A DNA stretch of 64,000 bases, taken from Burkholderiales bacterium. GTDB taxonomy: Bacteria > Pseudomonadota > Gammaproteobacteria > Burkholderiales > SG8-41. Location of the stretch: NCBI GenBank assembly GCA_019744975.1, contig JAIETP010000015.1, positions 56,929 to 120,928 of the forward strand. The letters run 5' to 3'. This document shows positions 1,242-57,146 of the stretch, piece after piece; within the stretch, counting starts at the first letter, position 1; each line of letters starts with the position of its first letter. The notes under the pieces are model-generated. The model was not told the DNA's origin. It worked only from the letters and a program-made list of their open reading frames with translations, and ran no database searches. The position numbers and the translations under genes are program-made.

Positions 1242-1276
1242 CGTGAATATCCGTATTCACTGGCAATGGAATTCCA

Positions 1277-3877
<2,601 letters not shown>

Positions 3878-4240
3878 GTTTTACCGGGAATGTTTTACCC
3901 GAGATACGTGCGCTAAGTTTTTGTTTTTCCGAAGGCAATAAATCATGCTGCCTGCTGAATTCATTGCCGGATGATTCATGATGTTTACTGACGGAAAAAA
4001 AGGGCAAAAAATCCTTTGACGTCTGTCATTGACAGGCGTAGAAATGTAAACAGAGTTGCGCAGCACTGCGGATCCGGTACCGGGATGCGCAGAGTGCGAG
4101 ATTCCGGGCAACCGTCCGGGTATCGCCTGTCAAGGCGACAGCCGCAAGCTGCAGCCGGCGCAAATCCGGAGTGGTGTGATGCCATTCATCAAAGGACGCC
4201 GCTCTATGGTGGCGCCGCACCGGGCAACCGGTCGCAACAA

Positions 4241-4261
4241 AGCCCCGCTCAATGCGGGGCT
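4241..4261. terminator. GC-rich hairpin, most likely the terminator of the minus-strand hydrolase/OsmC gene (possibly bidirectional)
   Basis: AGCCCCGC-tcaat-GCGGGGCT. On the minus strand it is followed by TTTGTT; the plus-strand T-tract is only TTT. Confidence 0.55.
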
Positions 4262-4295
4262 TTCCATTGGGAGCGTGCTCCAGTTACGGCGGAAG

Positions 4296-5519: not shown

Positions 5520-5640
5520 GGCGCTGCTCCATGGTGGGTGTCGGGGAGTGTCATGGGTGCCGCCGCCGGGCATCGCGCGGCACGCATGGTGGTATCATTG
5601 CATGCCCGCAATCGTCACAGAGTATTCAGGAGAAAATAAT

Positions 5641-6621
5641 TTGAAATCAAATATTTATCTAACATCCCTGATGTGGGCTGCGGCCTGCGCCGCGATCCAT
5701 GCGGCACCGGCAGTTGCGCAGATTTATCCGGTAAAACCGGTACGCATGATCATCCCGTTTTCAGCCGGCGGCGCAGCCGACGTGCCGGGGCGCATCGTGA
5801 TGCAGCAGCTCTCCGCGGTGCTCAAGCAGCAGGTCATCGTTGAGAACCGGTCCGGCGCCGGTTCGACCATAGGCGCCGATATCGCGGCAAAATCCGCACC
5901 CGACGGTTATACCATTTTCATGATCAGCAACACGCACTTCGTCAGCGCGGCCCTGCATAAAAAACTGCCTTACGATTCGCTGAACGATTTCACTCCGGTC
6001 ACTCAGATCACCAGCGCACCGAATGTGCTGGTGGTGCACCCTTCATTGCCGGTGAAATCGGTAAAAGACCTGATCGCACTCGCAAAAGCCAGGCCCGGCC
6101 AGATCGACTATGCATCGTCGGGTAATGGCAGCACCCAGCATCTGACCGGAGCGCTGTTTGCCAGCATGGCCGGTATCAGGCTGACGCACATCCCGTATCG
6201 CGGCAGTGGTCCGGTGACGGCCGACCTGCTCGGCGGCCAGGTGATGGTGGCATTTCCCGGCATCGCCGGCATGCTGGCGCATATCAAGAGCGGCAAACTG
6301 CGTCCGCTGGGTGTCACCGGAGCGAAACGTTCGCCGGAACTGCCCAATGTGCCGACGATTGCCGAGGCCGGTGTCAAAGGTTATGAAATGGTGGCCTGGT
6401 TCGGCGTGGCCGGGCCCAAGGGCCTGCCGCGCGAAATCCAGATGAAGCTGCACGCCGATCTGCTGCGGGTGCTGAAAGCGCCGGAAATGGGCGGCAGCCT
6501 GCAGGCGGTCGGGCAGGAGCCGGCGTGGCAGGATACACCGGAGAAGTTTTTTGATTTCATGAAAGTCGAAGCCACGAAATGGGCCAAGGTGGTCAAGGCC
6601 AGCGGCGCGGAAATCAACTGA
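5641..6621 (+). CDS. Bug/TctC-family tripartite tricarboxylate transporter substrate-binding protein
   Basis: Typical Bug motifs (YPVKPVRMIIPFSAGGAADV.., ..DYASSGNGSTQHL..). A TTG start at 5641 lies 9 nt after AGGAG; an ATG at 5671 is the alternative. No tctA/tctB gene is adjacent. Confidence 0.85.
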   Translation: MKSNIYLTSLMWAAACAAIHAAPAVAQIYPVKPVRMIIPFSAGGAADVPGRIVMQQLSAVLKQQVIVENRSGAGSTIGADIAAKSAPDGYTIFMISNTHFVSAALHKKLPYDSLNDFTPVTQITSAPNVLVVHPSLPVKSVKDLIALAKARPGQIDYASSGNGSTQHLTGALFASMAGIRLTHIPYRGSGPVTADLLGGQVMVAFPGIAGMLAHIKSGKLRPLGVTGAKRSPELPNVPTIAEAGVKGYEMVAWFGVAGPKGLPREIQMKLHADLLRVLKAPEMGGSLQAVGQEPAWQDTPEKFFDFMKVEATKWAKVVKASGAEIN

Positions 6622-7771: not shown

Positions 7772-8653
7772 TCAAGCTGCGCTGCGCTCAGGCCACATTT
7801 CCGCCAGGCCGTCGGCATCCGTGGCGGAAATGGTGGTGCGGATCATGTGACGGGGTTCGGTGACCGACCATGGCCGCCCGCGGTGCATCGTGGCCCGGTT
7901 GTCCCACATGATGACGTCGCCGGGCTGCCAGCGGTGCTGGTAGATGTGTTCCGGCTGCGTGGCAAAAGCGGTCAGTTCATCAATCAGTTGCAGCGCTTCC
8001 TCGCGGCCCATGCCGTCAATGGCGCAGGTATGCGAGGCGATGTACAGCGCGTCACGGCCGTTCACCGGGTTGCGCCAGCGCATGCGCCAGGACACCGCGG
8101 GCATTGTTGAACGTTCACGTTCGGAGGCCAGGTGCGGCGCAATTTTTCCGCGCGAGTGCGCGTAGTCATGCCAGGCGTATGCGTTATCGAGTTTTTTGCG
8201 CATTTCACCCGGCAGCCGCTCCCAGGTCAGCCGCATCGAAGTGAATTCGGTTTCGCCGCCGGTTGTGGCCACAGTCCTGCCTGACAGCACCGACGCCAGT
8301 GCCGGCGGAATCTTGAAACAGCTGTCGGTGTGCCACAGCTGATTCGCCTTGGCGCGCAATTCCTCCTTGTGGCCGGGTGGCACCAGCGTGCCATCGGGTT
8401 CGACATTGGTCAGGATGCTGAACGGCGTGCCTTCACCGCGTGAAGCGGCTTTGGCGATTTCCAGCGGGCCGAATTTTCGTGAAAAAGCCATCTGCAGTTC
8501 ATTGGTGATCGGCTGCGCACGGAATACCAGCACCGAATGTTCTTCAAAAGCGGCGCGCACCGCGGCATAAATTTCATCGCTGGCCGCGACATCAGCCATG
8601 CCGGCGCCGCGTACTTCAGCGGCAAATCCCGGGCCCAGCGGTATCAGTTCCAT
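7772..8653 (-). CDS. TauD/TfdA-family Fe(II)/2-oxoglutarate-dependent dioxygenase
   Basis: TauD-like sequence (..WHTDSCF.., ..MWDNRATMHRG..). The start at MELIPLG (8653) has GAGGAG 9 nt upstream. Confidence 0.85.
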   Translation of the reverse strand: MELIPLGPGFAAEVRGAGMADVAASDEIYAAVRAAFEEHSVLVFRAQPITNELQMAFSRKFGPLEIAKAASRGEGTPFSILTNVEPDGTLVPPGHKEELRAKANQLWHTDSCFKIPPALASVLSGRTVATTGGETEFTSMRLTWERLPGEMRKKLDNAYAWHDYAHSRGKIAPHLASERERSTMPAVSWRMRWRNPVNGRDALYIASHTCAIDGMGREEALQLIDELTAFATQPEHIYQHRWQPGDVIMWDNRATMHRGRPWSVTEPRHMIRTTISATDADGLAEMWPERSAA

Positions 8654-8666
8654 CGGCGTCTTCTCC

Positions 8667-9128
8667 TCAGACTGCATGCGGCATGGTGCCGCCAGCAGAT
8701 TCTACGCCCCGGTGTGCCGTAAATTCCTCCGGAGTCACGATATGGAACGGCAGTGGCGGGCGGTGCCGCGCCAGCGCCAGCAGTGCCTGATCCCTGCTCA
8801 GCAGGTAATGGGCACCGGTGCCTGCGGCCAGCTCAAGAAATTTCTGGTCATCGCTGTCCGCGCATGCGGGCAGGGTGATGGTGCAGGGTGTTTCCACTGT
8901 GCGCGAGACAGCACGGCATCGGTCAATGCAGTTGATCTGCTGCCCGGCATCCAGTGTCCATTTCTGCAGCGGATAAGCGAGTACGCGCAGCAACTCGGCT
9001 TCGCAATCGGCGTTGATGACGACTTCAGCCTCGCCCGCATCAACAGCCACCTGCAGCGCTTTGATGCCCGGATCATCAAACACCAGCCAGTCCAGCCAGA
9101 CATTGGTGTCCAGCACCAGCCGCAGCAT
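8667..9128 (-). CDS. PIN-domain protein (putative toxin-antitoxin toxin component, PIN family)
   Basis: N-terminus MLRLVLDTNVWLDWL.. with acidic residues spaced as in the PIN fold. It is packed tightly between the thioesterase and TauD genes. Confidence 0.7.
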   Translation of the reverse strand: MLRLVLDTNVWLDWLVFDDPGIKALQVAVDAGEAEVVINADCEAELLRVLAYPLQKWTLDAGQQINCIDRCRAVSRTVETPCTITLPACADSDDQKFLELAAGTGAHYLLSRDQALLALARHRPPLPFHIVTPEEFTAHRGVESAGGTMPHAV

Positions 9129-20988: not shown

Positions 20989-21417
20989 ATGGATTTGCAG
21001 GGTTTGCTTGAAAAAACGCTGGCCGGACTCGGCTACGAACTGGTGGAACTTGAGCGTTCGACCAAGGGCGGGCTGTTGCGTGTTTTTATCGACAAATCCG
21101 GCGGCATCAATGTTGATGACTGCGCCCTGGTGAGCAATCATCTGGGCCGGTGGCTTGCAGTGGAGAATGTCGGTTACGAACGTCTGGAAGTATCGTCGCC
21201 GGGACTGGACAGGCCGCTGCGCACGGCAAAGGATTTTGCGCGATTCAGCGGGCAAAAGGCACGGTTGAAGTTGCGTGTTCCGCTGGCAGGACAACGTAAT
21301 TTTGTCGGTGTGCTGCGTGATACCGAAGCAGGCAAAGTGGGTCTGGAAGTCGACGGGCAGCTGCTGTCGCTGGATCTGGGCAATGTGGATAAGGCGCGGC
21401 TGGTGCCGGTGCTTTGA
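20989..21417 (+). CDS. rimP: Ribosome maturation factor RimP
   Basis: ..[25 protein letters not shown].. motif, and the position upstream of nusA. Confidence 0.92.
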
Positions 21418-21430
21418 GCGGGAGACGGAA

Positions 21431-22915
21431 ATGAATCGTGAAATTCTGTTGTTGGTTGACGCGCTGGCGCGCGAAAAGAACGTCGACAAGGAAATCGTGT
21501 TCGGCGCGCTTGAACTCGCCCTGGCTTCGGCGGCCAAAAAGAAGTTCACCGAGGACGTCGATGTCCGCGCTTCGGTAGACCGCACCACGGGTGAGTTTTC
21601 CTTTTTCCGCCGCTGGGAAGTGGTGAAAAACGAGGAAATCGAGGTCCCGTCGCGCCAGTACAAGCTGCACGAGGCGCAGGAAGAAGATCCGGAATTCGAA
21701 GTCGGTGAATTTGTCGAAGAACCGCTCGACGGCATGGAAGTCGGCCGCATCGGCGCGCAGACGGCAAAACAGGTCATCGTGCAAAAAATCCGCGACGCTG
21801 AACGCGAACAGATCCTCAACGATTTCCTCGCGCGCAAGGAACATCTGGTCACCGGAGTCATCAAACGCATGGAACGCGGCAATGCCATCGTTGAATCCGG
21901 ACGCCTGGAAGCCATGTTGCCGCGCGACCAGATGATCCCCAAGGAAAATCTGCGTCTGGGCGACCGTGTACGTGCTTACGTCTGGAAAGTCGACCGGCTG
22001 GCGCGAGGCCCGCACCTGATCCTGTCGCGGACCGCACCGGAATTCATCGCCAAACTGTTCGAACTCGAAGTACCGGAAATCGAAGAAGGCTTGCTCGAGA
22101 TCAAGGGCGCCGCGCGCGATCCCGGCTCGCGGGCCAAGATTGCCGTGCATTCCAAGGATGCGCGCATCGATCCGATCGGCACCTGCGTCGGCATGCGCGG
22201 TTCGCGCGTGCAGGCGGTGACCGCCGAACTGGCGCAGGAGCGTGTCGACATCGTGCTGTGGAATCCGGATCCGGCGCAGTTTGTGATCAATGCCCTGGCG
22301 CCGGCGGAAGTCAGCAGCATTGTCGTCGATGAAGAAAAACACAGCATGGACATCGTTGTTGACGAGGAAAACCTGGCGCAGGCGATCGGCCGCAGCGGGC
22401 AGAATGTCCGGCTGGCGGGCGAGTTGACCGGCTGGGAACTGAACCTGATGACCGAGGTTGACGCGAAGAAAAAGAGCGAGGAAGAAACCTCGCGTACACG
22501 CGCGGAATTCATGGAAAAGCTGGACGTTGACGAGGAAGTGGCTGAGATCCTGGTGCAGGAGGGTTTTGCAACGCTGGAAGAAGTCGCTTATGTGCCGCTC
22601 ACCGAGATGCTGGAAATCGAGTCATTTGACGAAGCCACTGTCAATGAACTGCGCAGCCGCGCCCGCAATGCGCTGCTGACACAAGCCATCGCCAGCGAGG
22701 AAAAAGTCGAGCATGACATCGAAGACCTGCTGAAGGTCGAGGGCATGGATAACGATACGGCGCGGTTGCTGGCTTCGAAAGGCATCGCTACGCAGGAAGA
22801 TCTCGCTGACTACGCGACGGACGATCTTGTGGAACTGACCGCGCTCGATACAGAGCGCGCCAAAACGCTCATCATGGCGGCTCGTGCGCCTTGGTTCGCT
22901 GAAACCAGCGCTTGA
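21431..22915 (+). CDS. nusA: Transcription termination/antitermination factor NusA
   Basis: Start [18 protein letters not shown] at 21431 after GGAGA. S1, KH and C-terminal acidic repeat domains are present. Confidence 0.97.
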
Positions 22916-22943
22916 GATCATAAAAGTCAAAAAGTAATCATCA

Positions 22944-25493
22944 ATGGCCCAGATTAAAGTCAAAGAGTTTGCCCAGGAATTGGGGCTGCAGCCGGAACTG
23001 CTCCTTGAGCAGTTGCGCGCTGCCGGCGTGAAAAAGGCGCTGACTGACGACGCCGCACTGACCGAAAAAGACAAGACCCAGCTGCTCGACTATCTGCGCG
23101 AGGCGCATGGTGCCAAGGAAGGCAAGCAGAAGATCACGTTGACTCGCCGGCAAACGACTGAAATCAAGAAGGCTGATGCAACAACTGGCAAGGCCCGGAC
23201 GATTCAGGTCGAGGTGCGCAAGAAGCGCGTGTTGATCAAGCGTGATGCAGTGGAACCGGAAAAGGTCGAGGAACAGCCGCAAGCGGTCAAACCCATCATT
23301 GATGCCGCAGAAATTGCCGCCCGCGAAGCCGAAGCCAAACAGCACGCAGAACTTGCCTCGCGTCAGGCCGAAGACGCCGCAAAGAAGCAGGAAAAACGCA
23401 AAAAAGCCCAGGTTGTCGCCGAAGCTGCCGTAGAAACGCCCAAGGCTCCGCCCGTTGCGGTTCCGGCAACCGCGACTGCGGAAACAGAAGCGGTGGTCGA
23501 AGGCACGATACACAAACCCGCCGTGCCGGCCAGCGATGCTGCCAGCAAAGCGAAAAAGGGCGCCAAAAAACCGGTCAAGCAGGTTGTCTGGCAGGACCCG
23601 ACGGCGCGCAAGCGCAGCATCAAAACGCGTGGCGACGCCACCGGCGGTCTCGGCTGGCGCGAACGCAAGGTGCATCGCACCACTCACAAGCAGGATGGCG
23701 ACCAACAGCACGGTTTTATGGCGCCGACCGAGCCGGTGGTGCGCGACGTCATGGTGCCGGAAACCATTACCGTCGGAGAACTCGCACACAAAATGTCGCT
23801 CAAGGCCGCCGAGTTGATCAAGACGCTGATGAAGCTGGGCACGATGGCGACCATCAACCAGGTTCTCGACCAGGACACCGCGATCATTCTCGTCGAAGAA
23901 ATGGGCCACACCGCCAAACGCGCCAAACTCGATGAACCCGATGCCTTCCTTGCGGAATCAGCCGGACAGTCCGAGGTCAAGTCTGAGTCACGCGCGCCCG
24001 TGGTAACCGTGATGGGCCATGTTGACCACGGCAAGACCTCTTTGCTCGATTACATCCGGCGTACACGGGTCGCCAGTGGCGAGGCTGGCGGCATTACCCA
24101 GCACATTGGTGCGTACCACGTGGAAACGCCGCGCGGGATGATTACTTTTCTCGATACGCCCGGGCACGAAGCATTCACGGCCATGCGCGCCCGCGGTGCA
24201 AAAGTGACCGATCTGGTCATTCTGGTGGTGGCGGCCGATGACGGCGTGATGCCCCAGACCGCGGAAGCCATTCATCACGCAAAAGCCGGGAACGTGCCGA
24301 TCATTGTCGCGCTGAACAAGATCGACAAGCCGGAAGCCAACGCGGAGCGCGTCAAGCAGGATCTCGCCTCGCGCGAAGTGGTTCCCGAAGAGTGGGGCGG
24401 CGATACCATGTTCGTTGAAGTGTCGGCCAAGACCGGGCAGGGCATCGACAGCCTGCTCGAACGAATTCTGCTGCAGGCTGAAGTGCTGGAATTAAAAGCG
24501 CCGCGCGATGCGCCGGCAAAAGGCATCGTCGTCGAATCACGCCTGGACAAGGGGCGGGGCCCGGTGGCAACCGTGCTGATCCAGTCAGGCACTCTGAAAC
24601 GGGGTGATATCGTGCTCGCCGGTTCGGTATTCGGCCGCGTACGGGCCTTGCTGGACGAAGCCGGAAAAACCATCGAGTCCGCGGGCCCGTCCATTCCGGT
24701 GGAAGTGCTCGGGTTATCTGAGGTGCCGGCAGCCGGCGCCGAAGTCATGGTGCTCGGAGACGAGCGCAAGGCACGAGAAATCGCGCTGTTCCGCCAGGGC
24801 AAATTCCGTGACGTGAAACTGGCCAAGCAGCATGCCGCAAAACTCGAAAACATGTTCGAGCAGATGGGCGAGGGAGAAGTCAAAACCCTGTCGCTGATCA
24901 TCAAGGCGGATGTGCAGGGTTCCTTCGAGGGGCTGGCGCATGCACTGGGTAAACTTTCTACCGAAGAAGTAAAAGTGAATATCGTGCACTCTGCCGTCGG
25001 CGGCATCACCGAATCCGACGTCAATCTCGCGCTTGCCTCGAAGGCGGTGATCATCGGCTTCAATGCCCGTGCCGACGGCATGGCGCGCAAACTGGCCGAG
25101 AGCAGTGGCGTCGATATCCGTTATTACAACGTGATTTACGACGCTGTTGATGAAATCAAGGCGGCACTGACCGGCATGCTTTCACCGGAGCGCAAGGAAA
25201 GCGCAGTCGGCCTGGTCGAAATCCGCCAGGTTTTCCGCATTTCAAAAGTGGGTGCTGTCGCCGGCTGTTATGTGCTTGAAGGTATGATTCGCCGAGGTTC
25301 AAAAGTGCGGCTGCTCCGCGACAACGTCGTGATCCACGAAGGCGAACTCGATTCGTTGAAACGTTTCAAAGACGATGCGCGCGAGGTCAAGGCCGGATTC
25401 GAATGCGGCCTGTCCCTCAAGAACTTCAATGACATCAAGGAAGGCGACCAACTGGAAGTCTTCGAGGTTGTCGAAGTCGCGAGGACTTTGTAA
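22944..25493 (+). CDS. infB: Translation initiation factor IF-2
   Basis: 849 aa with a GTPase domain ([24 protein letters not shown]). Confidence 0.98.
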
Positions 25494-25553
25494 CGCAGCA
25501 CCGGATTATTGTCCGGACCGGCGGCATGCCGCTGGTTGCAGATCGGGTATCAC

Positions 25554-25928
25554 ATGCCTAAAGATTTTTCCCGCGGACGGCGCATCGCCGATCAGATCCA
25601 GCGCGAGTTGTCCGAAATCATCCGGCTCGAACTCAAGGATCCGCGCGTCGATCTGATCACCATCACCGATGTCGAGGTCACGCAGGACAACGCGCACGCC
25701 AAGATATTTTTTACCGCGCTCGGCGAGCCTGTGCAGCAGGAAGCCGCCACCAAGGCGCTTAATCATGCCGCAGGTTTTTTGCGCAGCGCGCTGGCAAAAA
25801 GCATCAAGTTGCGCACCGTTCCCCAACTGCATTTTCACTACGACATTTCGGTGGAGCGCGGCGTACGGCTGTCGAAACTCATCGACGACGCGGTCTCTGG
25901 AACAGGCGCGGACAAAAAGCGGCCGTGA
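25554..25928 (+). CDS. rbfA: Ribosome-binding factor A
   Basis: MPKDFSRGRRIADQIQREL.., the canonical RbfA N-terminus. Confidence 0.93.
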   Translation: MPKDFSRGRRIADQIQRELSEIIRLELKDPRVDLITITDVEVTQDNAHAKIFFTALGEPVQQEAATKALNHAAGFLRSALAKSIKLRTVPQLHFHYDISVERGVRLSKLIDDAVSGTGADKKRP

Positions 25929-26878
25929 TGGCAGCCGTCCCCAACCGTGCCGTGGTTGACGGCGTGTTGCTGCTCAACAAACCCCGGGGACTGACTTCCC
26001 AGCAGGCCGTATCACGTGCCAAACGGCTTTTTCAGGCGCGCAAAGCAGGCCATACCGGGACGCTGGATCCACTGGCGGACGGGTTGCTGCCGATCGGCCT
26101 GGGCGAGGCCACCAAATTCTCGCAATTTTTGCTGGACGCGGACAAACGTTATCGGGCAACGCTGCGCTTGGGCATCGTCACCACAACCGGCGATGCCGAA
26201 GGCGACATCATCAGCGAGCAGCCAGTGGCCGTGACCCTGCCACAAGTCACCGCGGTGTTGCGGCGTTTTGTCGGGTCGTTACAGCAGGTTCCGCCCATGC
26301 ATGCCGCCATCAAAGTGGCGGGTAAGCCCCTGTATGCCTACGCGCGGGCCGGTCAAACCTTAACGCGCGAGCCTCGGTCCATTGTTATAAATGATATACA
26401 AATACTTGATTTTATTGATAAAAATTTGATTCTGCGGGTATCCTGCAGCAAAGGTACTTACATCCGGGTGCTGGCCGAGGACATAGGCGCCGCCTTGGGC
26501 TGTGGTGCCCACCTGACTGCGCTGACGCGGGAAGGTGCCGGCCCCCTGGATCTGGCAAATAGCGTATCCATAGCCGACCTGGAAGGCATGACCATGGCGC
26601 ATCGGCTGGAACGGCTGCTGCCGCTGGAGACGTTTGCAGCTGGTTTGCGCCGCCAGGATGTCACGGCAGACGATGAGCGCCGGATATTCAGCGGGCAGCG
26701 CGTGGATTTCGGGGGAGGCGCAGTGCCGGGCCTGTGCCGCTTATACGGGGCTGCAGGCGTGTTTTTTGGCATTGGAGAGGTGGCGGCAGGAATCCTGACG
26801 GCGCGACGCCTGGTCACCCAGCCAGCGCCAACGGTTCCGGGTCAAAACGGCTTGAGTAATCCGGTAGTTACGGGGTAA
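25925..26878 (+). CDS. truB: tRNA pseudouridine(55) synthase TruB
   Basis: ..GHTGTLDPLADGLLPI.. and ..CSKGTYIR.. motifs. Its start overlaps the rbfA stop. Confidence 0.95.
   Translation: MMAAVPNRAVVDGVLLLNKPRGLTSQQAVSRAKRLFQARKAGHTGTLDPLADGLLPIGLGEATKFSQFLLDADKRYRATLRLGIVTTTGDAEGDIISEQPVAVTLPQVTAVLRRFVGSLQQVPPMHAAIKVAGKPLYAYARAGQTLTREPRSIVINDIQILDFIDKNLILRVSCSKGTYIRVLAEDIGAALGCGAHLTALTREGAGPLDLANSVSIADLEGMTMAHRLERLLPLETFAAGLRRQDVTADDERRIFSGQRVDFGGGAVPGLCRLYGAAGVFFGIGEVAAGILTARRLVTQPAPTVPGQNGLSNPVVTG
26396..26427 (+). repeat. AT-rich dispersed repeat, core copy, inside the truB coding sequence
   Basis: atacaaatacttgattttattgataaaaattt. It encodes ..IQILDFIDKNL.. Confidence 0.85.
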
Positions 26879-26910
26879 AATAACGCGATTTTTCGTCGGA
26901 GATAGAAGAC

Positions 26911-27180
26911 ATGGCTGTAACCACTGCCCAGAAGGCGCAGGTTCTGCAGGATTTCCAGCGTGCCAAGGGCGACACGGGTTCGCCCGAAGTCCAGATCGCG
27001 CTGCTGACCGCACGCATCACGGATCTGACCGAGCATTTCAAAGCGCACAGCAAGGATCACCATTCCCGCCGCGGTTTGCTGCGGATGGTCAGCACGCGCC
27101 GTAAACTGCTGGATTATCTGAAAAGAACCAAAGCCGAACAGTACAAGGCGCTGATCGAGCGTCTTGGCCTGCGCAAGTAA
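26911..27180 (+). CDS. rpsO: 30S ribosomal protein S15
   Basis: 89 aa; ..[23 protein letters not shown]... Confidence 0.97.
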
Positions 27181-27303
27181 TCTTGGCAAATAAGCAGGCG
27201 CATGCAGGTCTGTAATGCCAGCGTCCGTGCGTATTCCGCACGGCGCATGGTCGGCAAGCCGGCGCTGGGGAGCGTCGGCGTCTAGACTTTATTGATCCTC
27301 CGG

Positions 27304-27333
27304 AAGACCGCGTGTGCGGTCTTTTTGTTTTTG
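27304..27333 (+). terminator. rpsO terminator / hairpin in the pnp leader
   Basis: AAGACCGC-gtgt-GCGGTCTT followed by TTTGTTTTTG. Confidence 0.75.
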
Positions 27334-27375
27334 AGCACAGAAAATTAAAGCAATACAGAGAAAAGGAAATTCATA

Positions 27376-29490
27376 GTGAATCCCGTTAAAAAAACATTGA
27401 TGTGGGGTCGCCACCAGCTGACGCTGGAGACCGGCGAAATCGCGCGCCAGGCTTCCGGCGCGGTCATGGTCACCATGGAAGACACGGTAGTGCTGGTCAC
27501 CGTTGTCGGTGCACGCAACGCAAAACCGGGGCAGGATTTTTTCCCGCTGACCGTCGATTACCAGGAACGCACTTACGCCGCGGGCAAGATTCCCGGCGGA
27601 TTTTTCCGTCGCGAAGGCCGCCCGTCAGAGAAGGAAATCCTGACCAGCCGGCTGATTGATCGCCCGATCCGCCCGTTGTTCCCCGAAGGTTTTTACAATG
27701 AAGTTCAGATCATCGCCACGGTGATGTCCTCGAACAACGAAATCGATTCTGACATTCCGGCCATGGTCGGCGCATCCGCAGCACTGGCGCTCTCCGGCAT
27801 GCCGTTTGACGGCCCGATCGGCGCCGCGCGGGTGGGTTACAGCGATGGCCAGTACATCCTCAATCCGACTGCCACCGAGCTGAAGACTTCGCAGATGGAT
27901 CTGGTGGTTGCCGGCACACAACAGGCGGTGCTGATGGTCGAATCCGAAGCCCAGCAACTGTCGGAAGACATCATGCTGGGTGCAGTCGTGTTCGGTCACG
28001 AACAACTGCGCACCGTCATCAACGCGATCAACGAAATGGTCGATGAAATTGGTGTGCCGGAGTACAACTGGGCGCCGCCGCAGAAAGACGAGCAGCTGAT
28101 TGCACGCATGGCACAGATCGCCGAGGCCGAACTGCGTCAGGCTTATCAAATCAAGCAGAAGCAGGCCCGCACCGTTCGCGTCAAGGAAATCAGCGCGAAG
28201 GTCATCGCTGAACTGCTGCCGGCGGATGCTTCGCCTGACCTGATCAATGCCGTCAAAAACGAACTGGGCAATCTCGAGGCGAAAATCGTCCGCAACCAGA
28301 TCCTCGACGGCGAACCGCGTATCGACGGCCGCGATACTCGTACCGTGCGTCCGATCACCATCCGCACCGGTGTATTGCCGCGCACCCATGGCTCGGCGCT
28401 GTTCACCCGTGGTGAAACCCAGGCCATCGTGGTCGCCACGCTGGGCACATCACGCGACGAGCAGATTGTCGACGCCCTGCAAGGCACCTACCGCGAACGT
28501 TTCATGCTGCACTACAACTTCCCCCCGTATTCGACCGGTGAAACCGGCCGTGTCGGCACACCGAAACGCCGCGAAATCGGCCATGGCCGTCTTGCCAAAC
28601 GCGCGCTGGTGGCGGTGTTGCCGTCGGCCGAGGAATTCGCCTATTCCATCCGTGTTGTTTCGGAAATCACCGAATCCAACGGTTCCAGCTCGATGGCATC
28701 GGTCTGCGGCGGCTGCCTGTCGCTGATGGACGCCGGTGTGCCGCTGAAGGCGCAGGTGGCTGGCATCGCAATGGGCCTGATCAAGGAAGGCAACCGTTTT
28801 GCAGTGTTGTCCGACATCCTCGGCGACGAGGATCATCTCGGCGACATGGATTTCAAGGTGGCCGGCACCGAGAACGGCGTTACGGCACTGCAGATGGACA
28901 TCAAGATCAACGGCATCACCAAGGAAATCATGCACGCCGCGCTGAGCCAGGCGCGTGAAGGCCGCCTGCACATCCTGGAGAAGATGGCCAGCGCGATCAA
29001 CGCTCCGCGAACAGAACTCTCAGCCTGGGCGCCGCGCATGATCACCATGAAAATCAAACCGGAAAAAATCCGCGACGTCATCGGCAAGGGCGGGGCAGTC
29101 ATCCGTGCCATTACCGAAGAGACCGGCACCACCATCGACATCCAGGACGACGGCACCGTGGTCATTGCCTGCGTATCTTCCGAAGGCGGCGAAAATGCCC
29201 GCAAACGCATCGAGGAGCTGACCGCTGATGTTGAAGTCGGCCGTATCTACGAAGGCACCGTGTTGAAGCTGCTGGATTTCGGCGCGATCGTCAGCGTACT
29301 GCCCGGTCGCGATGGCCTGCTGCATATCTCGCAGATCGCCAATGAGCGCGTCAACAGCGTGGCCGACCACCTCAAGGAAGGCCAGGCGGTGCGCGTCAAA
29401 GTCCTCGAAGCCGATGAAAAAGGACGTTTGCGTCTGTCGATGAAGGCAGTCGGTGCGCCGGCGGAAGCGCAGCCTGCGCAAGTGCAGTGA
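27376..29490 (+). CDS. pnp: Polyribonucleotide nucleotidyltransferase (PNPase)
   Basis: 704 aa with a GTG start, two RNase PH domains, and KH and S1 domains. Confidence 0.98.
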
Positions 29491-30196: not shown

Positions 30197-30273
30197 GTGC
30201 CCGTAGCTCAATCGGATAGAGCACCGGCCTTCTAAGCCGGGGGTTGTGGGTTCGAGTCCCGCCGGGCGCGCCA
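30197..30273 (+). tRNA. tRNA-Arg (anticodon UCU)
   Basis: The cloverleaf was folded by hand: acceptor GTGCCCG/CGGGCGC, anticodon loop CTTCTAA, T-loop TTCGAGT, encoded CCA. Confidence 0.9.
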
Positions 30274-30302
30274 CAAATCAGCGTGTTTTAGTTTGCTTCG
30301 GT

Positions 30303-30379
30303 GGTGGCTGTAGCTCAGCTGGTAGAGTCCCGGATTGTGATTCCGGTTGTCGCGGGTTCGAGTCCCGTCAGCCACCCCA
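30303..30379 (+). tRNA. tRNA-His (anticodon GUG)
   Basis: Has the extra G at position -1, acceptor GTGGCTG/CAGCCAC, anticodon loop TTGTGAT, T-loop TTCGAGT and encoded CCA. Confidence 0.9.
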
Positions 30380-46454: not shown

Positions 46455-47729
46455 TCAGGCCGATGCGATTGCGAGTTCGCGCCAGGATGTGGTGCATCGC
46501 GGGGATCGGCGCATGGATTTCATGCGCCATGGCTGTTCGATGCCGGCGCCGGCAAAGGTTGCGGTGTTCATGCCGTATGTTTTGTTGATCGCATCCATGG
46601 CTGCCATCAGGCGGGCGGCGCGTGATGGCTGGCCGGCGGTAAAAAGGCCCGCCTGTGCTGCGGCCATCGGTTGCAGCCCCCCCAGCATGACCCCGGCTTT
46701 TTTATAGCGATAACCCGGACGGTAAATCCGTTCGAGTCCGTGCAGTGCGGCGGCGCACAGGCGCCGGGTGTCATCCGAAGGCGCTGCCAGCGGCACCAGG
46801 GTGGCAGGACTGTGGCAGGGCGTTCCCGGCCGGTGTTTTCCGGTTTGAATGAACACGGAAACCCGGGTGCAGACGGAATGTTGCCCGCGCAACCGTTCCG
46901 CAGCGCGGATGACATAAGTCGTCACGGCTTCGCGAAGCTCTCCCAGTTCCGTCACCGGGCGGCCGAAACTCCGCGTGGCCTGGATATGGGCTTTGGCTGC
47001 CATGACATCCTCCAGCGCCAGGCAGGATTCGCCATTGAGTTCGGCAACCGTGCGCTCCAGGACCACGCTGAAATTTCTGCGAATCCGCGCAGCGCCGGCA
47101 CCCCGCAGATCGAGAACCGTATGGATATCCATGCGCTTCAGTTGCGCGGCGAGTTTTCGGCCCACACCCCAGACCCTGCCCGCCGGGATATTGCCCATCA
47201 ATGCGGTTTGTCCGGCCGCAGGCAATTCCGCCCAGTCGAACACGCCCTTGCATTCATTGCGGGTCTTGGCGACATGGTTGGCAAGTTTGGCCAGTGTTTT
47301 GGAACTGCCGATGCCGGTGCAGGTGGTGATACCCAGATACTGGTGGATGCGCCGGCGGATTTCACGGCCGTGGGTGCTCGGGCTCCCGGGCACGCCGCTG
47401 AAATCAAGAAAACACTCATCGATGGAATAAATTTCCTGGCGCGGCGTGCATTCGCCAAGCAGCGCCATCATCCTCCTGCTCATGTCGCCATAAAGCGCGT
47501 AATTGGAACTGAGCCAGACCAGGCCGTGGCTGCCGACCAGCGGACGAATTTCAAAAAACGGCACGCCCATGCGGATGCCCAGCGCCTTCGCCTCATCACT
47601 GCGCGACACCACGCAGCCGTCATTGTTGGACAGCACCACCACGGGCCGGCGTTCAAGCGCGGGATTGAACACCCGTTCGCAGGATACGTAGAAATTATTG
47701 CCGTCGACCAGCGCAATGACCCGGCTCAT
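46455..47729 (-). CDS. umuC: Y-family translesion DNA polymerase (UmuC, Pol V catalytic subunit)
   Basis: [21 protein letters not shown].. and ..SIDECFLD.. motifs. Confidence 0.92.
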
Positions 47730-48208
47730 GGCGTATGCACCACATGCGCCACCACGCCCCAGATCTGCAGTTCATGATCGTCGGCGACGGCAATATCGGG
47801 GTAGGCGGGATTTTCAGCGCGCAGCGTAATCCGGCCGCGGGCGCGATGCAGGCGTTTGACCGTGAGTCCGCCGTTCAGCACAGCCACGACCACACGGCCG
47901 GATGCAGCTTCAAGCGACCGGTCAACGACCAGCAGATCGCCGTGGTGGATGCCGGCGCCGGTCATTGAATCGCCTTTGACGCGCAGGAAAAAAGTGGCCT
48001 CCGGATGCGGCGCCAGATACTCGTTCAGATCCAGGCACTGCTCAACGTGATCGGTCGCCGGCGAGGGGAAACCTGCTTCAGCCTTGCCGGCGCACAGGGG
48101 CAGCAATCGTGCCGCGGCGCCTGTGACGGCGCCCATTGGAACACTGAAGGGTAATTGGCGCGATGGCCCTGCTCGTGGTGGAAGTCGTGGTGGAAGATTC
48201 GTCGGCAT
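47726..48208 (-). CDS. umuD: UmuD-like S24 peptidase (Pol V accessory subunit)
   Basis: ..[28 protein letters not shown].. aligns with UmuD. The stop overlaps the umuC start. The start is ambiguous (48208, or 48244 if the SOS box is coding). Confidence 0.85.
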
Positions 48209-48265: not shown

Positions 48266-49234
48266 CTAGAGCTTGACCGTATTGCCCTTCGCAATTGACT
48301 GGATTACCGCCTCGAACGAGGCAATCGTGTTCACCATCTCGTCGGTGGTGATCGGATAAGGCGCCACACCCGCCACTGCATCAGCGAACGCATCCATCTC
48401 CGCCAGCACCGAATCGATTTTCGGAAAATCCCGGACCTCGGTCCTGCCGCCTTTGAGGCGGATGATGGTCCGCGTTTCATCAAGCGCTTCGACCGAACCT
48501 TCGTCACCGAAGGCATGTACGCGGAAGTAGAGCGGGGATGCGCGCACCGCGCCGAGAAAACCGCTGATGCCGTTCCTGAATTTGAACAGCACCGACACCG
48601 TGTCGCGCGGGTCGGCGCCGGTACGGTGGGCGATGAACTGCGCGGTGAGTTGTTCGGCCGGGCCGGCGATGTTGGCGAAGGCATCGAGGATGTGGATGCC
48701 GGTACCGGTCATGCCAGCCCCCGGGGTTTCGGCCGGCAGGTCGCGCCAGGGTGCGAAAAACTTGCTGGAGTGTTCGTTGCTGTAGTGTCCCTCGACATGC
48801 ATGACGCGGCCCAACGCGCCGCTGGCGATGACACGGCGCAACTCGACCATCGATGGCCAGAAGCGTTTGTTCTGGCCGACACCCAGCGGAACCTTGGCGG
48901 CCTTGCAGGCTGCGACTGCACGTTCGGCGTCGGCGCGGATCAGTGACAGCGGTTTTTCGCAGAACACCGCTTTGCCGGCACGGGCAACCTGCACCACCTG
49001 GTCGGCATGCAGCGAATGTGGCGTAGCCAGCACCACCGCCTGCACCATAGGGTCGGCCAGCGCTTCGTCCAGGCTTGCCGACAGTTTGAATCCTTTTGCC
49101 TTCGCGTACTCGCGCGTGGCCTCGAGCTCCTGGGTCACGCCATGCACAAAGTGCAATTTGGTGCTTTTACCCTGCACGGCGTCGGCGATGTTTTTGCCCC
49201 ACCAGCCGAGACCGACAATAGCCGCATTGATCAT
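48266..49234 (-). CDS. Gfo/Idh/MocA-family NAD(P)-dependent oxidoreductase
   Basis: MINAAIVGLGWWGKN.. Rossmann N-terminus and ..EKPL.. motif. Confidence 0.85.
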   Translation of the reverse strand: MINAAIVGLGWWGKNIADAVQGKSTKLHFVHGVTQELEATREYAKAKGFKLSASLDEALADPMVQAVVLATPHSLHADQVVQVARAGKAVFCEKPLSLIRADAERAVAACKAAKVPLGVGQNKRFWPSMVELRRVIASGALGRVMHVEGHYSNEHSSKFFAPWRDLPAETPGAGMTGTGIHILDAFANIAGPAEQLTAQFIAHRTGADPRDTVSVLFKFRNGISGFLGAVRASPLYFRVHAFGDEGSVEALDETRTIIRLKGGRTEVRDFPKIDSVLAEMDAFADAVAGVAPYPITTDEMVNTIASFEAVIQSIAKGNTVKL

Positions 49235-49266
49235 AAATTTATCAATAAAAACAAATAGTTATAATC
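49235..49266 (-). repeat. AT-rich dispersed repeat, core copy, abutting the start of the Gfo gene
   Basis: In gene sense, gattataactatttgtttttattgataaattt is followed directly by the ATG. Confidence 0.9.
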
Positions 49267-49905
49267 TTAATCATGCCTTGCCGCGCAAATCCTGCAGGCA
49301 TATTCCTCGAGCGTCGCGCGGGTCACGCCGACCGCGCCATGCTGACGGCGGTTGTATTCCTCGCTTTCGAGTTCGGTGCGAAAGGAATCGTTGAGCCGGT
49401 TGATCATGTTGAACATGCCGGTGATCAGCGAGATTTCGACGATTTCCGCATCGCTGAAATGTTTTTTGAGATCGTTCCAGACCTTGTTGTCGCTTTTGGC
49501 GGTGTTCAGCGTCATCGCTTCCGCCCAGGCCATCACGGCTTTTTCTTTTTCATTGAACAGCGGGCTGTCGCGGTAATCATCAGCCTGCAATGCATCGAAC
49601 TCGGTGTCTTTCAGTCCCAGTGCTTGACCAAGCACGTAGTTGTGTTCCGTTCAGTATTTGCAGCCGTTCACCGTTGAGGTCTTGAGCACGGCGAGATTGC
49701 GCAAGCGCACATCGGAAACGGCGCCGGCGTTGGGCTGACGCACCGCGGCAATGAAGGGCAGGGTCCAGCGCGCAAGGTAGGGACTGTGTGCAAGGATGCG
49801 CATCAGGTTGGCGGTGCGGCCGAGCATCCGGTTGGAGGCTTCAAACAGTTCTTTTGCAGGACCGGTGGCCTCCTCGTCGCTGATGCCGCGGATACGCTGG
49901 GTCAT
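49267..49905 (-). CDS. AhpD/carboxymuconolactone-decarboxylase-family protein with an in-frame UGA (candidate selenocysteine) at 49651..49653; alternatively a pseudogene
   Basis: The two ORF-track pieces share one frame. Read-through gives ..VNGCKY-U-TEHNY.., so the UGA replaces the second Cys of the family CxxC motif. The hairpin GUGCUU-GGUC-AAGCAC starts 15 nt downstream. Confidence 0.6.
49620..49635 (-). promoter_or_regulatory. Candidate bacterial SECIS apical hairpin
   Basis: The mRNA reads GUGCUU GGUC AAGCAC: a 6-bp stem with a GGUC loop. The loop begins 21 nt after the UGA. Confidence 0.5.
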
Positions 49906-49926
49906 AGCCTTGCCTTTCAGGTGAAT

Positions 49927-50448
49927 TCAGGAACTTTCGGGAACGGGTTCGATGCTGACATAACGTCCGCGGCAATAACCCAGCGGCGCGCGGTCGGCAT
50001 AACTGTAGTGCAGCACATGACCGATAAAAATCACGTGGTCGCCGCTGTAATGGCGCGCTTCGGTACGGCATTCAAATTGTGCCGCGGCGCCGTCGAGCAG
50101 CGGCATGCCGTGCGCACCGAAACCGTGGGCGACGCCGTCAAATTTGCGCGGCAACGGTTTTGCGAAACGCTGCGACAGCGCAATCTGGTCATGGGCCAGC
50201 ACATTGACGGCGAAGTGCGTGGCCTGCAGGAAATTCGGCAGATTGGGGGAGCGCAGCGACAGGCTCCACAACACCAGCGGCGGCGACAACGAGACCGAAC
50301 TGAACGAATTCGCCGTCAGACCGATGGGTTCTCCGGCGGAGGTCCTGGTGGTGACGATGGTGACGCCGGTGGCAAACAGGCCCAGCGCGTTGCGGAAGTC
50401 GCGCGGGTCGAGGTCCGGGCTGGCCGGTGCGGTCGGCGTATCGGCCAC
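49927..50448 (-). CDS. Flavin reductase (HpaC/NADH:flavin oxidoreductase family)
   Basis: ..FRNALGLFATGVTIVTT..GLTANSFSSVSLSPPLVLW.. The GTG start at 50448 lies 5 nt after the upstream stop. Confidence 0.85.
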   Translation of the reverse strand: MADTPTAPASPDLDPRDFRNALGLFATGVTIVTTRTSAGEPIGLTANSFSSVSLSPPLVLWSLSLRSPNLPNFLQATHFAVNVLAHDQIALSQRFAKPLPRKFDGVAHGFGAHGMPLLDGAAAQFECRTEARHYSGDHVIFIGHVLHYSYADRAPLGYCRGRYVSIEPVPESS

Positions 50449-50452
50449 AGTG

Positions 50453-51646
50453 CTACAGCGTCGGCAGGTCGGCGGCGATGCCGAGCAGGGACTTGCCGGC
50501 CATCGTGGTGGCGATATCCCAGGCCAGCGCGTAATGGCTGTTCGCGGCGTGGATATCACGGAAAGAACGTTGTATAACTTGTTGATTATAAAGAAATTCT
50601 CCGCCGCCGGCGCCGAACAGCAGGTCGACACCTTCGGTGCACAGGTGGGCGGCATAAGCACCATCGCGACGCATGCGGATTTTAAGGTCACGCGCAGGCA
50701 CCGCGTTGGTCGCGGCCAGGGCCATGGCTTCCCGGCAATTGCCGATCAGGATGCGCTCCGCGGCCGAGATCGCTGAGGCAGCATGGCCGAGCCGCGCCTG
50801 TGTGGTCGCGTAATCGGCGAGCAGGGTCGTGGCATAGGCGGTAATGCGATGACGAATATCGGCGCTGAATTCCTCGACGGCCCCCTGGGCAATGCCCAGG
50901 GCGGCGCCGGCCACGACATAGGGAAACATGTCGAACACCGGTAGTCGATACAGCGCGGCAGTTTCGCCGCCCGGCGCAACACCGCCTTTCATCTCCTCGA
51001 CCGTCAGTGCGCGGTGCGCCGGCACGAAGATTTCGCTGACTTCGACATCCTTGCTGCCGGTGCCGCGCAGACCCGCGACATGCCAGGTATCGATGATTTT
51101 GTAATCGGCCTTGGGCACCAGGAACACATAATATTGCGGCAGTTCACCTTCGGCGCTGCTGGTGATGCCGCCCAACATGCACCAATCGCAGGCGTCTATG
51201 CCGCTGGAGAATTTCCAATGGCCGGACAAACGAAAACCCTTGCCGTCGCGCTCGGCATGTCCCGCCGGAAACATCAGTGCTGAACCGATTAATGCGTCTG
51301 GAGAAGCGGCGCCGGGCGACGGGCCCCAGATTTCATCCTGCGCGACACGCGGCCACAGCGCGAGCATCCAGTGATGGTTGGCCAGATTGGCCAGCACCCA
51401 GGCGGTTGAACCGCAGCCGCGGCCGATGATGGCGGTCAGCTCAACGATGGCTTCATAGGACAATTCACTGCCGCCAACCCGTTTTGGCTGCAGCATGCGA
51501 AACAGGCCGCTGGCGTGCAGGTCATTGATGGTGTCGTCGGGGATGCGCCGCAGTTCTTCCGTATGAGGCGCCCGTTCGCGCAGCACCGGCACCAGTGCCT
51601 GCGCACGTTTGGCAAGTTCAGCGTGTGACGGCGCAGTTTTTGTCAT
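50453..51646 (-). CDS. Acyl-CoA-dehydrogenase-fold flavin-dependent monooxygenase, oxygenase component (HsaA/HpaH-C2-like)
   Basis: Start MTKTAPSHAELAKRAQALVPVLRERAPHTEELRRIPDD.. at 51646, with an ATGA overlap with the upstream gene. It is paired with the flavin reductase. Confidence 0.78.
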   Translation of the reverse strand: MTKTAPSHAELAKRAQALVPVLRERAPHTEELRRIPDDTINDLHASGLFRMLQPKRVGGSELSYEAIVELTAIIGRGCGSTAWVLANLANHHWMLALWPRVAQDEIWGPSPGAASPDALIGSALMFPAGHAERDGKGFRLSGHWKFSSGIDACDWCMLGGITSSAEGELPQYYVFLVPKADYKIIDTWHVAGLRGTGSKDVEVSEIFVPAHRALTVEEMKGGVAPGGETAALYRLPVFDMFPYVVAGAALGIAQGAVEEFSADIRHRITAYATTLLADYATTQARLGHAASAISAAERILIGNCREAMALAATNAVPARDLKIRMRRDGAYAAHLCTEGVDLLFGAGGGEFLYNQQVIQRSFRDIHAANSHYALAWDIATTMAGKSLLGIAADLPTL

Positions 51647-56075: not shown

Positions 56076-57146
56076 TCAGCGTCCCACCGCGGCCACAGCC
56101 GGCCGCGACTCAGGCAGCGGCAGGTTGACCGGTTCATTGCGCTCGGCGGAGATGTCGGCGGCGACGTAGAGTTCCATCACGTTGCGCGCTTCCTCCGCGG
56201 TGACCAGCACCGGGCGGTCGCAGCACACGGCCTCGATGAAATGCACGGTTTCGGCGTGCATCGGGCCGGCAAAGGCGTGATCGACCCGTTCACCCGGCAT
56301 CGACGACATCGGCAGCTGCATGCCGCTTTTCATGGTGTTGAGAATCACATCGCGATGGGTATCGTCAACCATCAGCGCGCCATCGGTGCCGATCATTTCG
56401 ATCCAGGTCGAGCAGGCATTCGGGTAGCCCGGCGGCAGGCTCCAGCCGGCGCCGATGACAAAGGACATGCCGCTGTCCATGGTCACGGTGATCCACTGCG
56501 TATCCGGCACGTCCTTGCCGCTGTTCGCACGCATCACGCCGTAGTTGGTCTGTGAATAGACCCGGATCGGTTTGGCGGGCGCCAGGCACCACAGGATAAA
56601 GTCGAGGTCATGCGTGGCTTCCATTGCCGCCGGCGACAGTTTGCTGCGGCCGGTGATCTTGGCGCCGAGGCTGCGCTGGATGTGACGGCTGACCATGGCG
56701 CTGACGGGTTTGCCGATGGCGCCGCTGTCCAGGCATTTTTTGACGTAGGCGTATTTGGGATTGAAGCGCTGCGAATAACCGATGGTGAACTTGACGCCCT
56801 TGCGCCTGGCGATGGCGATCAGGTCATCAGCCTCGTGCAATTCGACGGCGATCGGTTTTTCCATGAACACGTGCAGGCCGGCTTCGAGGCAGTCGCGCGC
56901 CATCGGGTAGTGCAGGGCTTCCGGCGTCGCGGAAATCATCACCGCATCAAGATCCTTAACCTCGAGCATTTTGCGGTAATCGTCACTCGCGGTTTTGGCG
57001 CCGGTGGCCTTGGCCACTTCCGCCAGGCGCTCCGGTCTGGTTTCGACGATGTGCAGGTCTTTCACTGCCGGATTGATGGCGCAGGTGTCGGCGCGGATGC
57101 CGCCGCACCAGCCGGTGCCGATGATGCCCATGTTGATCTGCTTCAC
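56076..57146 (-). CDS. Gfo/Idh/MocA-family oxidoreductase
   Basis: MKQINMGIIGTGWCG.. and ..EKPI.. motifs; 356 aa. Confidence 0.85.
   Translation of the reverse strand: MKQINMGIIGTGWCGGIRADTCAINPAVKDLHIVETRPERLAEVAKATGAKTASDDYRKMLEVKDLDAVMISATPEALHYPMARDCLEAGLHVFMEKPIAVELHEADDLIAIARRKGVKFTIGYSQRFNPKYAYVKKCLDSGAIGKPVSAMVSRHIQRSLGAKITGRSKLSPAAMEATHDLDFILWCLAPAKPIRVYSQTNYGVMRANSGKDVPDTQWITVTMDSGMSFVIGAGWSLPPGYPNACSTWIEMIGTDGALMVDDTHRDVILNTMKSGMQLPMSSMPGERVDHAFAGPMHAETVHFIEAVCCDRPVLVTAEEARNVMELYVAADISAERNEPVNLPLPESRPAVAAVGR

Follow-up and report, generated by a model that had tools for sequence, protein, structure and literature searches.

AhpD-like proteins with a CxxU motif (COG2128, later tied to TIGR01926) have been known as a selenoprotein family since 2005, from the Sargasso Sea and Global Ocean Sampling (GOS) metagenomes (PMC1088965, PMC2398784; listed in PMC13188914). 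They were among the most abundant selenoprotein families in GOS, and a second group of AhpD-like proteins was noted to be more frequent outside marine samples (PMC1088965, PMC2398784, PMC13188914). A 2006 genome survey reported the selenocysteine (Sec)-decoding trait to be common in Betaproteobacteria, with FdhA as their sole selenoprotein (PMC1794560). We analysed a 64,000-nt stretch of contig JAIETP010000015.1 from a Burkholderiales metagenome-assembled genome (MAG; GCA_019744975.1), hereafter the window, in which a preliminary description had joined two minus-strand open reading frames (ORFs) into one candidate selenoprotein gene. In the reading we favour, with a probability of about 0.92, this is a single AhpD-like (COG2128-type) gene in which UGA at codon 85 would be decoded as Sec by means of a downstream selenocysteine insertion sequence (SECIS), giving a putative thiol/selenol oxidoreductase with the active site Cys82-Lys-Tyr-Sec85-Thr-Glu-His88. 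Comparison with related loci indicates that the apparent stop codon almost certainly encodes Sec.

The locus shares with the described AhpD-like selenoproteins the AhpD/CMD fold, Sec at the position of the second Cys of CxxC, a SECIS within the ORF directly after the UGA, and Cys homologues that are far more numerous. It differs from them in that the gene lies outside the curated models, in its motif C-x-Y-U-T-E-H-N, in a clade-specific C-terminal CxxC, and in its hosts, which are Burkholderiales of soil, groundwater and freshwater and not marine plankton. As the preliminary description stated, AhpD-like selenoproteins were already on record (PMC1088965, PMC2398784), and the gene is a new, or at least unannotated, member of the known AhpD-like CxxU family that is mis-annotated at present. 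General knowledge of selenoproteins is unchanged by it, CxxU AhpD-like proteins having been catalogued since 2005.

The AhpD/CMD-superfamily gene runs from 49905 to 49267 on the minus strand as a single 212-codon frame, Sec85 included, followed by TAA. The read-through product of 212 residues contains ...NGCKY[U]TEHNYVLGQALGL..., with the active-site motif N-G-C82-K-Y-[UGA85]-T-E-H88-N. The features of the gene are as follows.

49267..49905, minus strand: putative selenoprotein gene, COG2128-type 'alkylhydroperoxidase family enzyme' (translation; Pfam and NCBIfam matches span the UGA; orthologues in 123 loci)
49913..49918, minus strand: Shine-Dalgarno-like GAAAGG, 7 nt 5' of the ATG (read in sequence)
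49905..49903, minus strand: start ATG (read in sequence)
49660..49662, minus strand: Cys82 codon TGC, first residue of the C-x-Y-U redox motif (invariant Cys in Sec and Cys forms)
49651..49653, minus strand: UGA codon 85, predicted to be read as Sec (TGA in 123/123 loci; Cys in 119/119 Cys forms)
49642..49644, minus strand: His88 codon of C-x-Y-U-T-E-H, between the UGA and the supposed GTG restart (invariant in Sec and Cys forms; CAC/CAT synonymous variation)
49285..49296, minus strand: C-terminal Cys204-Arg-Ile-Cys207 (CxxC), specific to the Sec clade (117/117 unique Sec-form genes)
49269..49267, minus strand: terminal TAA (read in sequence)

The coordinates of the 212-codon gene agreed with those first proposed, and the claim that it is one AhpD/CMD gene was upheld by Pfam and NCBIfam matches and by 225-aa Cys homologues that are collinear across the break. 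The stop of the upstream flavin reductase gene, itself a TGA, lies at 49929..49927, and the ATG of the putative selenoprotein gene begins 21 nt after that TGA. In GenBank the gene is filed as two hypothetical proteins of the Burkholderiales MAG, MBX9904794.1 and MBX9904793.1 (K2Y31_10595/10590), and IMG likewise carries it as two fragments; the 90%-identity clusters of the two GenBank pieces comprise 160 and 85 members truncated in a similar way. A part of the JGI metagenome contig Ga0438479_0047 (171,662 bp) matches the window exactly, and a contig from a second sample, with five single-nucleotide polymorphisms (SNPs) in 18.8 kb relative to the window, has the same in-frame TGA. When the split entries are merged, a complete redox enzyme results; hundreds of related entries in databases show the same split.

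Reading frame across the UGA codon

A full-length protein search of a 5.8-billion-sequence collection found proteins of at most 69% identity, the best Cys-form matches being P0001-P0120; close relatives were missed in this search because gene callers split them. Locus scans of one genome per GTDB species gave 47 loci, all from Burkholderiales/Betaproteobacteria MAGs at 69-95% amino-acid identity, and scans of metagenomes gave 80 loci at 76-95% identity; the Sec-form loci are L003-L129. TGA was present at the exact codon in 45 of the 45 MAG loci that cover the site, with TAA or TAG in none, and in 78 of 78 covering metagenome loci, so that the combined count for this column is 123/123. The same column is Cys in 27 of 27 aligned homologues, where it forms the second Cys of C-x-Y-C, and in all 119 motif-bearing proteins among the best 120 Cys-form matches. 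Residues N80, C82, Y84, H88, G93 and G97 are invariant on either side of it. The proposal that the UGA stands at the second redox Cys of the family was thus confirmed by a homologue alignment with both flanks conserved. One related locus (L047, MEQT01000063.1, 10001..10447) keeps the TGA and has an in-frame internal deletion (...HNRV|IVEISL...) through which the SECIS and some 60 codons are lost and 150 remain; decay of this copy or an assembly artefact is the probable cause. An alternative genetic code was considered and ruled out, because TGA is the main stop codon here, terminating 39 of 61 long ORFs as well as the gene immediately upstream.

Selection and codon use were analysed on 117 unique complete Sec-form genes. 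Mean pairwise differences at codon positions 1, 2 and 3 were 0.150, 0.084 and 0.458 upstream of the UGA and 0.134, 0.120 and 0.417 downstream of it, and as judged from these values purifying selection is equal on both sides. Thr-Glu-His-Asn is kept through synonymous changes (ACG/ACC/ACA/ACT, GAG/GAA, CAC/CAT, AAT/AAC) in the five-codon interval from the UGA to the GTG. From these substitution patterns we conclude that one reading frame is translated through the UGA.

The same selection evidence downstream of the UGA bears on the simplest alternative, a pseudogene or sequencing error in which TGC or TGT of an ordinary Cys-type AhpD-like gene became TGA by a nonsense change. A Cys codon is a single base change away from opal, the public annotation gives two hypothetical proteins, and a similar TGC to TGA change does occur nearby, in a GFO/IDH/MocA oxidoreductase gene of the second sample. 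A decaying pseudogene is nevertheless in effect excluded by the intact purifying selection past the codon, and a chance nonsense change also conflicts with the TGA at every one of the 123 orthologous loci, which stem from dozens of samples and species, and with a hairpin conserved specifically at synonymous sites. Identities of 69-95% and differing neighbourhoods show that these loci are not copies of one contaminant. The scenario set out beforehand as a refutation, close relatives with TGC and no hairpin together with decay in this strain, is contradicted, and the probability we give to this explanation is negligible. The change in the second sample lies at position 865 of contig L002 (window 56733, minus strand, in the GFO/IDH/MocA gene 56076..57146), where TGC to TGA at Cys138 splits the gene into 137 and 206 aa. 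As a candidate for a second Sec site it was dismissed: the residue is C, S or A in orthologues, and since it is not conserved the TGA looks like a plain nonsense SNP.

A second alternative takes the annotation at face value. Translation would stop at the UGA and restart at the GTG 15 nt further on, the resulting 84- and 122-aa polypeptides would assemble, and the hairpin would act as a coupling or re-initiation signal. The GTG is kept in 117/117 genes close to the stop, and gene callers arrive at this very pair of ORFs in at least 160 and at least 85 database members. The only possible start of the downstream ORF, however, is the Val91 GTG, which is at the same time the 5' end of the hairpin stem, and no Shine-Dalgarno-like sequence was read before it. 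The five intervening codons, T-E-H-N-Y/R, vary synonymously and include the family-invariant His88, so they are translated in frame; this synonymous variation under a conserved T-E-H-N excludes stop and re-initiation at the GTG. A split would also delete the second redox residue, which is invariant in every homologue. The view that the downstream piece is no independent gene, first argued from the GTG within the hairpin and the missing Shine-Dalgarno sequence, is strengthened by the translation of the five preceding codons, and we regard two assembling polypeptides as highly improbable.

The hairpin downstream of the UGA

The second feature that sets the Sec-form genes apart is a hairpin 15 nt after the UGA, for which two rows can be given.

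49617..49639, minus strand: candidate SECIS hairpin with a 3-bp lower stem, a one-nt 5' bulge at 49636 and a 6-bp upper stem (49635..49630 with 49625..49620) (RNAalifold consensus, codon invariance)
49626..49629, minus strand: GGUC apical tetraloop, starting 21 nt after the UGA (GGUC in 117/117 unique genes)

The sequence GTGCTT-GGTC-AAGCAC was found at 49635..49620 on the minus strand, exactly where the preliminary description had placed it, with 15 nt from the UGA to the stem and 21 nt from the UGA to the loop. Codons 91-96, which encode it, are frozen: GTG in 117/117 genes, CTT in 116/117, GGT in 117/117, CAA in 116/116, GCA in 116/117 and CTG in 115/117. They are the six columns of lowest codon entropy among 110 conserved-residue columns, the mean elsewhere being 1.08 bits, and their codons are minority choices in the rest of the gene, where Leu is normally CTC or CTG, Gln CAG, Ala GCG or GCC and Gly GGC. 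RNAalifold returned a consensus over the alignment consisting of the lower stem, bulge, upper stem and GGUC loop at -7.96 kcal/mol, and 99.1% of pair cells were canonical, as against 22-55% in a control with slid partners. The lower stem alternates between C-G and U-G, C-G and U-G, and G-U and A-U at its three pairs, which are canonical in 114-117 of 117 genes; the alternation accompanies changes of residue 90 among Tyr, Arg and Trp. In the upper stem, one locus (L118, JACCDS010755341.1, 1465..1514) has GUGCUA-GGUC-UGGCAC, in which U-A becomes A-U and another U-A becomes U-G. This is the only double compensatory variant; it changes Leu CTT to CTA and Gln to Leu CTG, so that the stem is retained at an amino-acid cost. 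Another locus (L028) shows U-A to U-G with pairing retained. The five Cys-form genes L130, L131, L132, L134 and L139 have TGC or TGT at the site and lack the hairpin; the first four form only 1-3 of the 6 pairs at equivalent positions, though their peptide is similar (G-Q-A-L-G-L), and the codons of L139 encode no hairpin. Taken together, the codon and pairing patterns show that the hairpin is under nucleotide-level selection as an RNA element.

Folding from the UGA onward gave the hairpin with pairing probabilities of 0.68-0.88 and a minimum free energy (MFE) of -8.4 kcal/mol. The published bacterial SECIS (bSECIS) model requires a loop of 3-9 nt, an upper stem of 4-16 bp, a G in the first two loop positions, a UGA-to-loop distance of 16-37 nt and an MFE of at most -7.5 kcal/mol (PMC13188914), and the hairpin lies within every one of these bounds (4 nt, 6 bp, GG, 21 nt, -8.4 kcal/mol). 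The spacing first judged acceptable for a bacterial SECIS therefore held when checked against that model (PMC13188914). A gathering-threshold Rfam search of the whole window returned two tRNAs only, with no family matching the hairpin, and a permissive Rfam search of 49560..49700 gave only a chance snoRNA match (E = 0.89).

The GGUC loop of Escherichia coli fdhF, cited in the preliminary description, was verified on NC_000913.3, where the UGA is codon 140 and the loop starts 18 nt after it in the structure (((.(((GGUC)))))). Both elements lie within the ORF soon after the UGA and have a GGUC tetraloop, a one-nt 5' bulge directly below the upper stem and a 3-bp lower stem. They differ in the upper stem, of 6 bp here against 3 bp in fdhF, and in the loop position (21 against 18 nt). 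The bulge is G, C or A here (74/29/13, plus one U) and a conserved U in fdhF, and the present element lacks a further lower helix, with -8.4 compared to -14.9 kcal/mol for fdhF over 45 nt. By analogy with fdhF, a ribosome arriving at UGA85 would meet mRNA 15-37 nt downstream folded into the SECIS hairpin, which would tether SelB-GTP-Sec-tRNA(Sec) and so outcompete release factor 2. From the sequence we infer both selenium insertion at codon 85 and binding of the hairpin by SelB. The frozen 23-nt SECIS with its fdhF-type GGUC loop is a convenient test object and may be readable by E. coli SelB.

Protein family, fold and predicted chemistry

Pfam PF02627 (CMD) matched residues 65-129 with 21.5 bits, a narrow miss of the gathering threshold of 23, and many homologues have a precomputed PF02627 match. 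With Cys substituted for Sec, TIGR01926 ('peroxidase-related enzyme') scored 66.1 bits compared to a cut-off of 81.8, and NF053654 (GroundWater_YciW, 'YciW-related (seleno)protein') scored 72.4 bits compared to an equivalog cut-off of 310; both NCBIfam models span residues 3-176, across the UGA. Since the scores fall under the cut-offs of TIGR01926 and NF053654, no current annotation model captures the gene. JGI labels homologues with COG2128 and TIGR01926 names; the protein belongs to a sister subfamily in the broader COG2128 group and is not a TIGR01926 member. Sequence matches in the PDB were Atu0492 (2gmy, 2.8e-14), PA0269/AhpD (2ijc/7xw1), Deinococcus radiodurans AhpD (6k40) and the debrominase Bmp8 (6ohi, 1.7e-8).

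A structure model was made for P0002, a Cys-form homologue of 63-65% identity that shares the TEHN motif and the C-terminal CxxC. The AF2 model was all-alpha (pLDDT 82, pTM 0.79) with the CxxC at a helix N-terminus, and Foldseek retrieved the same AhpD-type structures, the TM score on the target reaching 0.88, Bmp8 again among the relatives. Together with the PDB sequence matches, the model establishes the AhpD/CMD all-alpha fold for the protein. Like the Cys-type AhpD structures (2gmy, 2ijc/2o4d/7xw1, 6k40), it would place N-G-C-x-x-C at a helix N-terminus of an all-alpha fold; those structures have Cys and not Sec, are mostly about 145 residues long compared to 212, the difference being extra N-terminal helices and a C-terminal tail, and are 25-29% identical. 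In the alignment with 2gmy the conserved His is offset by one, CxxCxxxH in 2gmy compared to CxxUxxH here.

The active site of Mycobacterium tuberculosis AhpD has the spacing CxxCxxxH. The protein is not a canonical AhpD of that type, given its CxxUxxH spacing and the weak Foldseek matches of the P0002 model to 1knc and 1gu9 (E about 1 only). The Cys-form sister proteins P0001-P0120 (mostly 218-232 aa, for example from the Rhizobiales MAG GEU91_03295) are 60-69% identical, collinear over the full length and have the same invariant residues. They differ in having TGC or TGT without the hairpin, C-[AST]-[AT]-H-T in place of U-T-E-H-N and, except for P0002, no C-terminal CxxC. All of the 117 unique Sec-form genes end in Y-[A/G]-C-x-x-C, a C-terminal motif shared by only 1 of 119 Cys-form homologues (P0002). 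This CxxC co-occurs with the Sec codon and the U-T-E-H-N motif, and P0002 also has TEHN.

By analogy with the family, the most likely function is that of a selenol/thiol couple, Cys82/Sec85, which reduces peroxide or an oxidised partner. Sec85 and Cys82, at the helix N-terminus, would cycle between the selenol/thiol and selenenylsulfide states, and the couple would, as its family membership suggests, reduce peroxide or another oxidised substrate or partner. The clade-specific C-terminal CxxC possibly recycles the Cys82/Sec85 centre; one may speculate that it serves as a redox relay for the CxxU centre or forms part of a metal site. A more far-reaching proposal is that these proteins are a distinct Burkholderiales AhpD-like selenoprotein subfamily, covered by no curated model, in which C-x-Y-U acts jointly with the C-terminal CxxC; this tail would either re-reduce the selenenylsulfide as an intramolecular relay or join C82/U85 in a Cys3Sec metal site of four ligands, and the subfamily would be a widespread second selenoprotein family of Betaproteobacteria besides FdhA (PMC1794560). 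We consider this doubtful as a whole.

A competing functional proposal takes the protein to be no peroxide-detoxifying AhpD analogue and makes it a substrate-level reductase of the catabolic island around the gene, perhaps a reductive dehalogenase or a deprotecting enzyme in the manner of the AhpD-fold debrominase Bmp8, or else a dedicated protector of the two-component flavin monooxygenase encoded next to it. The PDB relatives include Bmp8 (6ohi, 1.7e-8; also retrieved by Foldseek), and the gene lies, under a LysR regulator, in an operon with a flavin reductase, an acyl-CoA dehydrogenase (ACAD)-type oxygenase, a luciferase-like monooxygenase, four GFO/IDH/MocA oxidoreductases and TctC. The nearest structures, however, are AhpD-type antioxidant proteins, and the flavin-enzyme neighbours are confined to the subclade at or above about 87% identity. 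We hold either role to be unlikely, at odds of some one in four for the two together.

Selenocysteine machinery and gene neighbourhood

Several observations weigh against decoding of the UGA as Sec in a peroxide- or partner-reducing protein. No SelA, SelB or SelD was found by tblastn with E. coli NC_000913.3 queries in 1.12 Mb, which covered the window, a 10-kb extension at one end and the sequence flanking related loci. A 71-nt context that includes upstream codons was no more stable than shuffled sequence (z = -0.83), and the hairpin is missing from its MFE structure, while 20% of TGA triplets in the window precede a loosely SECIS-like hairpin, 4% one with a tetraloop. Because the hairpin is nearly invariant, double-sided covariation evidence comes down to one sequence. 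The protein scores below the curated cut-offs of Pfam CMD and of all selenoprotein-aware NCBIfam models, and no conserved gene partner backs the peroxide- or partner-reducing chemistry, which is drawn from family membership only. As the hairpin is unremarkable in a single sequence, the case rests on the comparison with relatives; and since only the window and local flanks were searchable, the negatives for selA, selB, selC and selD say nothing about whole genomes. For selC, ARAGORN did not find a tRNA-Sec in the window and the 47 loci, and extension of the contig by 10 kb past the window end added nothing relevant to Sec machinery.

The only match of that tblastn search, a SelB-like one at 22944..25493, was rejected as SelB, being IF2 in a nusA-infB operon. 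The order in the window at 21275..29490 (plus strand) resembles nusA-infB-rbfA-truB-pnp, as inferred from ORF sizes and positions, and tRNA-Arg(TCT) and tRNA-His(GTG) follow this cluster at 30197..30379. Other split ORFs with a GGUC-loop or bSECIS-like hairpin were looked for in the window and all loci, and every case that came up was spurious, being off-frame or made of adjacent genes.

The machinery that was not found in the window and in the local flanks of relatives leaves some room for a third alternative, in which the hairpin stimulates read-through of the UGA with Cys, Trp or Arg inserted by a near-cognate or suppressor tRNA, without Sec machinery; the inserted residue is not identifiable from the nucleotides alone. 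Against this, the hairpin fits the SelB-type bSECIS model with exactly the loop of fdhF, and the catalytic Cys position is the classic place of a Cys/Sec exchange. For Cys a TGC would do, as in all other homologues, TGA is the main terminator in this genome, and the Sec-decoding trait has been reported as common in Betaproteobacteria (PMC1794560). Insertion of a standard amino acid is improbable, though somewhat less so than either a pseudogene or a split gene. Decoding as Sec would mean that the trait is present across a broad range of uncultured Burkholderiales from soil, groundwater and freshwater.

The operon in the window, as read from Pfam matches on the called genes of the identical contig, is LysR-controlled and comprises four GFO/IDH/MocA oxidoreductases, TctC, a luciferase-like monooxygenase, an ACAD-type oxygenase and a flavin reductase. 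The immediate neighbours of the putative selenoprotein gene are as follows.

49927..51646, minus strand: upstream operon neighbours, flavin reductase (49927..50448) and acyl-CoA-dehydrogenase-type oxygenase component (50453..51646) (Pfam)
48266..49234, minus strand: downstream GFO/IDH/MocA oxidoreductase, separated from the putative selenoprotein gene by a 32-nt spacer (called genes)

The preliminary description had suggested a safeguard for uncoupled flavin chemistry. Adjacency to flavin enzymes was kept only in the subclade at or above about 87% identity, and the other Sec-form genes adjoin PPDK_N/PEP-utilizer, M24 peptidase, 2-hydroxyacid dehydrogenase, CoA-transferase III or Iso_dh (isopropylmalate/tartrate-dehydrogenase-type) genes. 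The suggested role is possible locally; because the neighbourhood varies across the clade, it is not supported as a conserved one. A conserved neighbourhood was likewise rejected as a functional clue, the gene neighbours changing across the clade.

The 32-nt spacer (49235..49266, GATTATAACTATTTGTTTTTATTGATAAATTT) has 12.5% GC in a window of 59.6% GC and no obvious Shine-Dalgarno sequence before the ATG; the same region also looks AT-rich in close relatives. Among the Cys forms, the gene for P0001, the closest ordinary one at 69% identity, directly follows a TctA transporter gene and a GFO/IDH/MocA oxidoreductase gene (L130, Ga0394879_0031314, 968..4353), an arrangement that echoes the association with TctC and GFO/IDH/MocA at many Sec-form loci. 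In L134, from a Cys-form genome, two 225-aa genes about 2 kb apart (5368..6045 and 8001..8678) flank an integrase fragment and small ORFs, and L135 is arranged likewise. One gene of the pair is a Cys-form homologue; in the other, of equal length, the KTS..N.C.Y motif was not found on a scan. The pair may have arisen by duplication or be associated with a mobile element. Immediately past the downstream end of the operon in the window lies an umuD-like (Peptidase_S24) and umuC-like (IMS) gene pair (46455..48136, minus strand), and the same pair occupies the same place in the related locus L009.

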